From a virus (taxonomy: Duplodnaviria; Heunggongvirae; Uroviricota; Caudoviricetes): 45,946 bases of DNA. Location: the IMG/VR virus record IMGVR_UViG_2585427775_000005; one strand, written 5' to 3'. This document shows, one piece after another, positions 39,001 through 42,000 of the stretch; the stretch's first letter is position 1; each line of letters begins with the position of its first letter. The position numbers were made by a program.

Positions 39001-42000
39001 ACGATGCTGTTCTCACTGGGTGCCAGCATGATACTGGGTGGTGTGGCCCAGATGCTGGCCCCGAAGGCAAAGACGCCGGAGTACAAAAGTACGGATAACG
39101 GTAAACAGAACACGTATTTTTCGTCACTGGACAACATGATTGCCCAGGGTAACCCGATGCCGGTGCCTTACGGTGAAATGCTGGTTGGTTCACGACGGAT
39201 ATCCCAGGACATCAGCACCCGTGATGAGGGCGGAGACGGGAAAGTGGTGGTTATCGGACGGGGATAAAAATAAAAAAATCCCGCAGAGTTAGCGGAGCTG
39301 CGGGAAGAGATACGAAGATTAACTGTAAGGAGTTATTATTATGTCACAGCAAAAAAAACGGTAACGCAGAGAAATTATAAGCGCCACTGGGATTTTGTGA
39401 AAATGTGAAGAATTTCAGAAATTTTCTGTTGCGGAGCTGAACTAAAAAACGCTCCCGCAATACACCTGGATATTAACGGGAGGAACGAATAGTCACCTTA
39501 AGGAGTTGCGATTAATTGCTTTTATTGACCGCAGGTAATCTACCCATCCGGCAAGGTTTCCTCCACGGGAATTTGCCGGAAATGTGAAGAATTTCAGAAA
39601 TTTTATTCCGTCATGACACAGGCACCCTCCGGGGTGCCTGTCGTTTTCTGGCATAAACAGATTCAGACATCAGACAGGAGAGGGGGACAGAGTGGGTAAA
39701 GGGGGCGGCAAGGGGCACACACCGCGTGAGGCGAAGGACAATCTCAAATCCACGCAGATGATGAGCGTGATTGATGCCATTGGTGAGGGACCGGTGGAAG
39801 GTCCGGTGAAGGGACTGCAGAGTATTCTGGTGAACAAAACCCCGCTGACGGACACGGACGGTAATCCCGTGATACACGGTGTGACCGCCGTCTGGCGTGC
39901 CGGGGAGCAGGAGCAGACACCGCCGGAAGGCTTTGAGTCCTCCGGGGCGGAAACCGCACTGGGCGTGGAGGTGACGAAGGCAAAGCCGGTGACGCGCACC
40001 ATCACGTCAGCGAACATTGACCGTCTGCGGGTCACCTTCGGGGTGCAGTCACTGGTGGAGACCACCTCAAAGGGTGACCGTAACCCCTCTTCTGTCCGCC
40101 TGCTGATTCAGCTTGAGCGTAACGGTAACTGGGTGACGGAGAAGGATATCACCATTAACGGCAAGACTACCTCGCAGTACCTGACGTCGGTGATTCTGAA
40201 TAATCTCCCTGAGCGCCCCTTTAACATCCGGATGGTCAGGGAGACGGCGGACAGCACCACGGACCAGCTGCAGAACAGAACGCTGTGGTCGTCATACACC
40301 GAAATCATCGATGTGAAACAGTGCTACCCGAACACGGCGATTGTGGGGCTGCAGGTGGATGCGGAGCAGTTTGGTGGCCAGCAGCTGACGGTGAACTACC
40401 ATATCCGTGGTCGCATCATCCAGGTGCCGTCAAACTATGACCCGGAAAAACGCACCTACAGCGGTATCTGGGACGGGAGTCTGAAACCGGCATACAGCAA
40501 TAACCCGGCCTGGTGCCTGTGGGACATGCTGACCCACCCGCGCTACGGGATGGGAAAACGCCTGGGGGCCGCGGATGTGGACAAGTGGGCACTGTATGCC
40601 ATCGGGCAGTACTGCGACCAGACGGTCCCGGATGGTTTCGGAGGCACAGAGCCGCGGATGACCTTTAATGCGTACCTGTCACAGCAGCGTAAGGTGTGGG
40701 ATGTCCTGGGGGATTTCTGCTCGGCGATGCGCTGTATGCCGGTATGGAACGGCCAGACGCTGACGTTCGTTCAGGACCGCCCGTCGGATGTGGTGTGGCC
40801 GTACACCAACAGCGATGTGGTGGTGGATGATAACGGCGTGGGGTTCCGCTACAGCTTCAGTGCCCTGAAGGACCGGCACACGGCGGTGGAGGTGAATTAC
40901 ACTGACCCGCAGAACGGCTGGCAGACTTCCACGGAACTGGTGGAAGACCCGGACGCCATCCTGCGCTACGGACGCAATCTGCTGAAGATGGATGCGTTTG
41001 GCTGTACCAGCCGCGGTCAGGCCCACCGTGCCGGACTGTGGGTGATAAAGACCGAACTGCTGGAAACGCAGACGGTGGATTTCACGCTCGGGTCACAGGG
41101 GCTGCGGCACACACCCGGTGACATCATTGAAATCTGTGATAACGACTACGCCGGGACCCTGACCGGCGGACGCATCCTGTCCATCGATGCCGCCAGCCGC
41201 ACACTGACGCTGGACCGAGAGGTGACACTGCCGGAAGCAGGGGCATCGACGGTGAACCTGATTAACGGCAGCGGTAAGCCGGTGCGCGTGGACATCACTG
41301 CACACCCCGCCCCTGACCGGATACAGGTCAGCGTCCTGCCGGATGGCATGGAGACATACGGTGTGTGGGGACTCTCCCTGCCGTCACTGCGTCGTCGCCT
41401 GTTCCGCTGTGTTTCCATCCGGGAAAACACGGACGGCACTTTTGCCATCACGGCAGTGCAGCACATACCGGAAAAAGAAGCCATCGTGGATAACGGGGCC
41501 CGCTTTGAGCCGCTGTCCGGTTCACTGAACAGCGTCATCCCGCCGGCAGTGCAGCACCTCACGGTGGAGGTGAGTGCCTCAGACGGCCAGTATCTGGCGC
41601 TGGCGAAATGGGACACGCCGCGGGTGGTGAAGGGCGTGCGCTTCAGTCTGCGCCTGACCAGTGGCAGTGGTGAAAACAGCCGCCTGGTGACCACCGCCAT
41701 CACTGCCGACACGGAGCACCGTTTCAGTGGCCTGCCTCTGGGGGAATACACCCTGACGGTCAGGGCGATAAACAGCTACGGCCAGCAGGGCGAACCTGCC
41801 ACCACCACGTTCCGGATTAACGCCCCGGCAGCACCGGACAGCATTGAGCTGACGCCGGGGTATTATCAGATAACAGCAGTACCGGTGCTGGCGGTGTATG
41901 ACCCGACGGTACAGTCTGAATTCTGGTTCTCAGAAAAACGCATCACGGACATGGCACAGGTGGAAACCTCTGCCCGTTATCTGGGGACAGGCAGCCAGTG

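Follow-up and report, generated by a model that had tools for sequence, protein, structure and literature searches.

Three orphan small RNAs (sRNAs) of Escherichia coli O157:H7 Sakai, EcOnc22, EcOnc23 and EcOnc24, were found as peaks of Hfq crosslinking and analysis of cDNA (CRAC) in the prophages Sp15, Sp14 and Sp11, respectively (Tree et al., 2014, Mol Cell, PMC4104026, Table S2). The published work shows that these loci yield an RNA of about 85 nt on Northern blots, made from the strand opposite the tail genes I and J, and that this RNA can be crosslinked to both Hfq and RNase E and becomes 'destabilised' when hfq is deleted (PMC4104026, Table S2; PMC5286369). A 2021 review gives their targets as 'unknown' (PMC7873438), and we found no alternative name for them in the literature that we searched, including searches by sequence string and by Sakai locus tag. 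Here we describe the 424-bp spacer between the I-like and J-like genes of a Caudoviricetes prophage (IMG/VR record IMGVR_UViG_2585427775_000005; the whole analysed stretch of 45,946 nt is called the window below). The cassettes in this spacer are members of the EcOnc22/23/24 family. They are thus a known kind of element, with an RNA detected in E. coli O157 and no target assigned.

Lambdoid prophages of enterohaemorrhagic E. coli (EHEC) encode other short Hfq-bound RNAs in their late regions. The anti-sRNAs AgvB and AsxR (PMC4104026) and the sRNA HnrS, which corresponds to EcOnc10/11/12 (PLoS Pathog 2026, PMC13502914), resemble the present family as short late-region morons whose copy number scales with the number of prophages. 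They differ from it in sequence and in site, since AgvB and AsxR sit 3′ of PR′ and HnrS elsewhere in the late genes, and they have defined targets (GcvB, FnrS and hha). For none of them has a tandem array or a CRP-like box been described. We rejected AgvB/AsxR as the identity of the present cassettes on the grounds of their position, and HnrS because it is a different RNA. A further likeness, in architecture only and without sequence homology, is to ChiX and other 'class II' Hfq-dependent sRNAs, in which an unpaired (AAU)n or A-R-N tract precedes a seed that is rich in C and U and resembles an anti-Shine-Dalgarno sequence, the RNA ending in a Rho-independent terminator and its U-tail; for the cassettes described here, the use of the corresponding Hfq faces and the repression of targets are hypothetical.

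Cassettes of the I-J spacer and their Sakai homologues

The spacer occupies positions 39268-39691, from the end of the I-like open reading frame (ORF) at 39267 to the GTG start of the J-like ORF at 39692, which agrees with the boundaries given in an earlier note on this DNA. An identical stretch is present in E. coli GE3, where the flanking genes are annotated as 'tail assembly protein' and 'phage attachment tail tip protein J'. We consider it highly probable from the sequence that the spacer consists of two tandem, diverged sRNA gene cassettes on the minus strand, antisense to the tail genes, with a J-proximal block to their right. A small RNA was among the options raised in the earlier note. 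That option gains support, although the RNA genes appear as two minus-strand cassettes antisense to I and J and not as one structured insert.

Cassette 1, on the left, appears to be an intact gene. Its RNA is predicted to run from 39367 to 39272 on the minus strand (about 96 nt, GCGUUACCGUUUUUUUU...CUGCGGGAUUUUUUU), and it matches the family profile in nhmmer with E=3e-23; within the window the profile matches only this cassette and cassette 2. The putative sigma-70-type promoter (39374-39401, minus strand) agrees with the consensus at 11 of 12 positions, with a -35 hexamer TTCACA at 39401-39396, a 16-nt spacer and a -10 hexamer TATAAT at 39379-39374, and transcription would start near 39367. 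The predicted intrinsic terminator (39272-39305, minus strand) has its stem at 39305-39298 and 39286-39279 and a U7 tract at 39278-39272, and it ends 5 nt from the I stop codon. These arms (39279-39286 and 39298-39305), followed by seven T on the minus strand, form the terminator-like hairpin that the earlier note had seen at the left end of the spacer. Together with the U6 of cassette 2, the U7 of cassette 1 reaches the length of at least six that is characteristic of Hfq-dependent sRNAs.

The folded RNA of cassette 1 has a predicted minimum free energy of -19.8 kcal/mol (z -2.9) and is mostly open outside the terminator. An A-R-N repeat and the adjoining core (39312-39342, minus strand; AUAAUAAUAAC-UCCUUA-CAG-UUAAUCUUCGU) are predicted to be single-stranded, which makes them a candidate Hfq distal-face site and seed. 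The same interval is a conserved island in the family alignment, and an EcOnc22 fragment recovered by crosslinking, ligation and sequencing of hybrids (CLASH) covers the homologous stretch.

The coordinates of Tree et al. (2014) refer to NC_002695.1 and therefore had to be converted to NC_002695.2. The offset is +142 at 1.27 Mb, as calibrated on the terminators of AsxR and EcOnc27, and +135 at 2.9 Mb, where a CLASH read gives it exactly; an offset of about this size is also compatible with the EcOnc15 terminator. The read in question, from RNase E CLASH, is reported for EcOnc22 at 2902717-2902749 with the sequence GCCTGAAAAATAACTCCATAACGTTAATCTTCA (PMC5286369), and it corresponds to positions 1153-1185 on the plus strand of the EcOnc22 locus (L005). 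This match fixes both the strand of EcOnc22 and the +135 offset. The published Northern probe (GGGAGAGAACGATGAAGATTAAC...) has the I-to-J sense sequence, so the RNA that it detects is antisense to these genes. The I-J spacers of Sp15, Sp14 and Sp11 lie at 2902691-2902930, 2676622-2676861 and 2166672-2166911 of NC_002695.2; each is 240 bp long, with I and J on the chromosome minus strand. The EcOnc22 RNA occupies the left module and is the same gene as the one predicted from the sequence. Used without conversion, the Sakai sRNA coordinates of Tree 2014 and Waters 2017 misplace EcOnc22-24 within the spacer (loci L005, L008 and L009).

Cassette 1 is 79.6% identical to Sakai EcOnc22 over 98 aligned columns. 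The window shares with the Sakai loci the I-J spacer of a lambdoid prophage as its site, the antisense strand, and the succession of box, -10, RNA and terminator, and its sequence homology to them includes an identical terminator and an identical UUAAUCUUC core. It differs in that its allele diverges in the 5′ third of the RNA and at three to four positions of the presumed seed (CCUUACAGUU here, CCAUAACGUU in Sakai), and for this reason the target sets of the two alleles may differ. It also adds a second, diverged and apparently promoter-less cassette, whereas Sakai has one cassette in 240 bp. The comparison with related prophages that the earlier note had proposed shows what was added. In most Shiga toxin (Stx)-type phages, among them VT1-Sakai and 1720a-02, I and J are separated by 240 bp. 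Both ends of that spacer can be aligned with the window, which has an additional 179 bases; these lie between the two copies of a 25-mer and are a diverged copy of the left module.

Cassettes of the family have, in RNA sense, a common anatomy: a 25-bp box, then, after 24 nt, the -10 hexamer, and after it an RNA of about 90-100 nt with an intrinsic terminator. In 65 of 71 unique cassettes the -10 (TATAAT, AATAAT or TATCAT) keeps this fixed 24-nt distance to the box. The RNA itself has a conserved GCGUUA 5′ end, a U-run, a variable stretch, an (A-R-N)3-4 tract with at least three consecutive triplets in 67 of the 71, the core CUCCUUA...UUAAUCUUC(G/A)U, and a CCCGCAG/CUGCGGG terminator hairpin with U7. 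Conservation of the promoter, the core and the terminator extends over 53 unique RNA variants, and the terminator stem is kept in 23-25 of 25 family members. Counted over the examined loci plus the window, 127 arrays have one cassette per junction (for example VT1-Sakai), five have two, as the window does, two have three (E. coli 2018-166, L003, and L171), and two have four (L181 and L251).

Cassette 2 (about 39546 to 39444, minus strand, roughly 103 nt) has kept the body of the RNA and a terminator, with the stem at 39482-39477 and 39457-39452 and the U6 at 39449-39444. It matches the family profile with E=3e-8 and folds with z -2.3. Its identity to cassette 1 is 57%, a distant relationship; to the third cassette of L003, an intact relative that has a promoter, the identity is 72%.

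Several observations temper the reading of the spacer as a pair of sRNA genes. For cassette 2, no promoter-like site was recognizable. Its -10 position reads AACCTT, and the promoter has therefore probably been lost; judged by this, the cassette is probably silent or decaying. The RNA evidence comes from the Sakai homologues, and the start site of cassette 1 is placed from its promoter-like sequence. Covariation is minimal, the terminator being the sole consensus helix in the family folding, with one compensated pair (G-C to A-U). Finally, the covariance-model search suggested in the earlier note returned no Rfam family for the spacer, either in a permissive search of the region or in a search of the whole window at the gathering threshold.

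The upstream box and the question of CRP control

The 25-mer AAATGTGAAGAATTTCAGAAATTTT is present in exactly two copies, at 39401-39425 (R1) and 39580-39604 (R2), 179 bp apart, as the earlier note had reported. Shuffled sequences are expected to give no match to it even with three mismatches allowed, and the similarity between the copies extends over 42 nt at 86% identity. By its placement, the repeat is evidently the shared upstream box of the cassettes, with the pattern TGTGA-N6-TCAGA (TCTGA-N6-TCACA in RNA sense). The CRP-like core of R1, TGTGA-AGAATT-TCAGA, lies at 39404-39419, with its centre about 44.5 nt upstream of the inferred sRNA 1 start, and that of R2 lies at 39583-39598, upstream of cassette 2. 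The view that the repeat looks like a protein-binding site is retained here, but the dyad proposed for it is not. We rejected AATTTC-A-GAAATT as the functional dyad, because it is perfect in this allele only and is never compensated elsewhere; the dyad that is conserved is the overlapping TGTGA-N6-TCAGA.

Conservation of the box was judged on 62 genuine cassettes that had been sampled by their terminators only, so that the sample is unbiased with respect to the box. The half-sites TGTGA...TCAGA are invariant in 60 of these, and almost all variation falls on the two central bases of the N6. Internal boxes of arrays are conserved as well, while the RNA bodies and the 24-nt promoter spacer have strongly diverged.

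This pattern can be compared with known sites for CRP, although our weight matrix, made from 16 classical CRP sites, is approximate. With this matrix the two boxes are the joint top-scoring 22-mers of the 46-kb window, at 17.0 bits, and the 16 classical sites, scored with the same matrix by leave-one-out, reach 0.9-14.9 bits, all below the boxes. The pattern TGTGA-N6-TCA[CG]A occurs three times in the window against 0.28 expected. Within the limits of this approximate matrix, both the score and the half-sites of the box agree with a 22-bp site of the TGTGA-N6-TCACA type. A further TGTGA-N6-TCAGA is found at 16040-16055.

CRP is known to control sRNA promoters, activating that of CyaR and repressing that of Spot 42 (spf). 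The present arrangement resembles these in having a TGTGA-N6-TCAnA site immediately upstream of or overlapping the -35 of an sRNA promoter. It differs from them in that the box is a putative CRP site with a non-canonical predicted centre. The 25-bp repeat would then be the operator of the cassettes, most likely for CRP with cyclic AMP (cAMP), a reading to which we give roughly an even chance. In the Sakai copies, which are known to be expressed, the -35 is a poor one (TTCCGG), consistent with an activator-dependent promoter.

An alternative that we hold to be possible, and somewhat less probable than not, is that the box is not a CRP site and represents an A/T-rich UP-like element, a site for another host or phage protein, or merely a conserved stretch at which recombination takes place. 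Canonical centres for activation by CRP are -41.5 (class II) and -61.5 or -72.5 (class I). The box centre, near -44.5 (plausibly -42.5 to -45.5, assuming a start 7 nt past the -10), is off these positions, and its right half-site is always TCAGA and not TCACA. The box is also A/T-rich and located where UP elements sit, and in single-cassette spacers it is carried inside a long block conserved to J, so that its conservation is perhaps partly inherited. These features count against CRP, and the approximate matrix also weakens the assignment. Several others are harder to reconcile with a non-CRP box. The bases vary as in a site for a dimer whose halves are 6 bp apart: the half-sites are fixed and only the two central bases change, despite the strongly diverged promoter sequence next to the box; the box has the highest CRP-matrix score within the window; and prophages of several types have conserved it, which points to a host factor. 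When the box and promoter were compared by eye with the consensus sequences for sigma-54, sigma-32, TyrR, Cra and IHF, none fitted.

If cAMP-CRP does bind the box, it could equally activate or repress, since the predicted centre, near -44.5, is off the canonical -41.5.

Possible modes of action

We propose that the spacer is a 'moron' insertion site holding two tandem copies of an autonomous sRNA cassette, which would be read leftward, antisense to the tail operon. The RNA would act as an Hfq-dependent base-pairing sRNA, with the (A-R-N)3-4 tract and the U-tail predicted to bind Hfq. The unpaired core, CUCCUUA...UUAAUCUUC, is anti-Shine-Dalgarno-like and would pair in trans with the ribosome-binding regions of targets; we put the likelihood of this pairing at about one half. 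The RNA might in addition act in cis on the late tail transcript, to which it is complementary.

Two sets of results bear on targets in trans. The CLASH hybrids of the Sakai RNA comprise only 1-2 reads and are non-significant; yjbJ is an example, in which AACGUUAUGG pairs with the homologous stretch CCAUAACGUU. In a duplex scan of the two seeds of the window against its 61 translation-initiation regions, nothing was better than with shuffled seeds.

It is unlikely, in our view, that the RNA acts mainly as a cis-antisense on the late tail transcript, pairing with the I-J spacer mRNA and leading to RNase III cleavage or altered I/J. Such a role would suit a gene contained entirely within the late operon and read from the other strand, with full complementarity over about 96 nt, and the CLASH data include sense-strand reads from the I 3′ untranslated region. 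However, fully complementary antisense RNAs usually need no Hfq, whereas the homologue is Hfq-bound and Hfq-dependent. Cis pairing alone would also leave the conserved internal core between variable sequence unexplained, and between the region that would be paired and the J ribosome-binding site downstream of it there are 140-320 nt. The cis-antisense role is compatible with base-pairing in trans and does not exclude it.

Much less probable still is the proposal, raised in the earlier note, that the repeats regulate J or serve another plus-strand function. R2 does lie 88 nt upstream of the J start, in a block that is highly conserved from R2 to J. Nevertheless, the box keeps its fixed 24-nt spacing to a minus-strand -10; no plus-strand promoter-like site was seen between the repeats and J, where a plus-strand terminator-like hairpin intervenes; and the internal boxes of multi-cassette arrays are separated from J by hundreds of bases, with the terminator of another cassette coming next.

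To a functionless spacer, either an inert recombination scar or a decayed mobile mini-element (the latter also an idea of the earlier note), we assign the same very low probability. The arrays are clearly products of recombination, the inter-cassette segments of L003 retain remnants of the gene I 3′ end, and cassette 2 looks promoter-less. Against this, homologous copies are transcribed, Hfq-bound and detected on Northern blots, and promoter, core and terminator have been conserved through the 53 RNA variants. The spacer also fails as a miniature inverted-repeat transposable element or dispersed repeat, since it has no terminal inverted repeats and its copies are not dispersed: of the 134 arrays that could be evaluated, 127 directly adjoin the 3′ end of gene I.

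The motif TAAGGAGTT, whose duplication the earlier note had seen, lies at 39326-39334 and 39499-39507, within a 35-nt repeat that has 71% identity and a 173-bp spacing. The least probable reading of all is that this motif serves as a Shine-Dalgarno sequence for very short peptides encoded on the plus strand (MSQQKKR, 39341-39364, and a 23-aa ORF, 39516-39587), for although the match is perfect and is followed by ATG 6 nt downstream in cassette 1 and by TTG 8 nt downstream in cassette 2, relatives have ATA in place of the start, a frame and length that depend on an A-run, or a lost Shine-Dalgarno (ATGGAG in Sakai), and no peptide is conserved.

The spacer had been described as free of ORFs longer than seven codons, which is incorrect. 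A mechanical ORF list gives ORFs of 22-53 aa on both strands: on the plus strand, the 23-aa ORF just mentioned, with its TTG start, and one of 28 aa with an ATG start (39613-39699), and on the minus strand ones of 22, 38 and 53 aa. No ORF in this list is conserved among the relatives. A protein-coding moron is likewise not supported, as the start codon, frame and length behind the Shine-Dalgarno-like motif vary among cassettes. In phage 1720a-02, an annotated 'hypothetical protein' (AGR48338.1; L002, 1457-1609) spans the end of I into the sRNA terminator region and is probably spurious.

Arrays, the J junction and other small-RNA signals

The box may also have a part in the growth of the arrays. 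As it is the longest identical segment among diverged cassettes, it is likely to be the crossover point for unequal recombination between co-resident prophages, which would generate arrays of one to four cassettes. In the two arrays of four (L181, IMG/VR contig 2728369607_000007, positions 314-1232, and L251), the cassettes fill an I-J spacer of about 920 bp; their RNA bodies are strongly diverged, and every box keeps TGTGA-N6-TCAGA and the 24 nt to a -10.

The spacer is matched in 780 of 5426 complete E. coli genomes (~14%), with a median of three matching places in each, and 33 complete E. coli genomes carry the same two-cassette arrangement as the window. A contig search with a 16-base pattern gave, among the matches listed, three genuine ones, L067, L086 (E. 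albertii) and L118, the others being chance matches. L067 is a 460-bp contig labelled Parendozoicomonas haliclonae, from the assembly of a marine bacterium, and is likely contamination.

Neither the tandem arrays nor the shared operator or the conserved core seems to have been reported before. An unannotated 'structured' spacer would be explained as real genes, in the form of cassettes that were missed by annotation and are absent from Rfam, and these sRNA genes multiply into arrays of up to four. The orphans EcOnc22, EcOnc23 and EcOnc24 gain testable features, namely a promoter architecture, a candidate regulator in cAMP-CRP and a conserved possible seed core. If both the RNA and its control by CRP hold true, prophage riboregulation would be linked to the carbon state of the host. 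A bolder proposal, which we regard as doubtful, is that the Stx-type I-J junction is a dedicated sRNA array grown by recombination, with one to four cassettes under a common cAMP-CRP operator and with differing seeds, from which polylysogens would gain a combinatorial, carbon-responsive repertoire against host or rival-phage mRNAs.

More broadly, the I-J junction appears to be a general insertion hot-spot. In the type represented by L153 (7758-8100), which comprises 42 of the examined cassettes and is the commonest in IMG/VR, a different block, about 180 bp in length, comes after the cassette. This block, which has a strong, bidirectional-looking hairpin, AAAACCCCGGTATCTGCTGATACCGGGGTTT, replaces the hairpin and J leader of the window. 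In L157, an ORF starting MNKKTKR follows the cassette instead.

The J-proximal block of the window holds a plus-strand terminator-like hairpin (39618-39649) with a 10-bp stem, the loop UCCG and then CGUUUUCU. Its arms, 39618-39627 and 39632-39641, are followed by CGTTTTCT. The earlier note had placed this hairpin 45 bp before J; its last base lies 50 nt before the J start. Among 11 J-leader variants the hairpin pairs in 98% of cells, with one compensated C-G to U-A pair; covariation in these variants is not significant when compared with shuffles. The J ribosome-binding site and GTG (GGAGAGGGGG) follow at 39677-39694 on the plus strand.

A similar arrangement is found in lambda, where I and J are 60 nt apart and thus not strictly adjacent, contrary to what had been assumed. 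The lambda spacer contains an analogous terminator-like hairpin, AAACCGCCTGCGGGCGGTTTTGT, with a U-tract just upstream of J (L265, 1262-1288; lambda 15461-15487), and it differs in having no sRNA cassette. This analogue places the right hairpin with the J junction and not with the insert. The cassettes are inserted between the I stop codon and the right hairpin. In lambda the spacer hairpin is preceded by AAAATGTTTTATGTGAAA, which bears a faint resemblance to the box.

Elsewhere in the window, Rfam families score above the gathering threshold at 9013-9086, 9112-9195, 9899-10073, 17127-17327 and 15438-15686; the matches are isrK, C4 antisense RNA, sok antitoxin RNA, STnc100 and three tRNAs. The prophage thus carries several other small-RNA genes. 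The STnc100 match, at 17127, begins about 20 nt downstream of the third-best CRP-like 22-mer of the window, AAATTTTAAATGTCTCACAATT (17084-17105, 16.1 bits).

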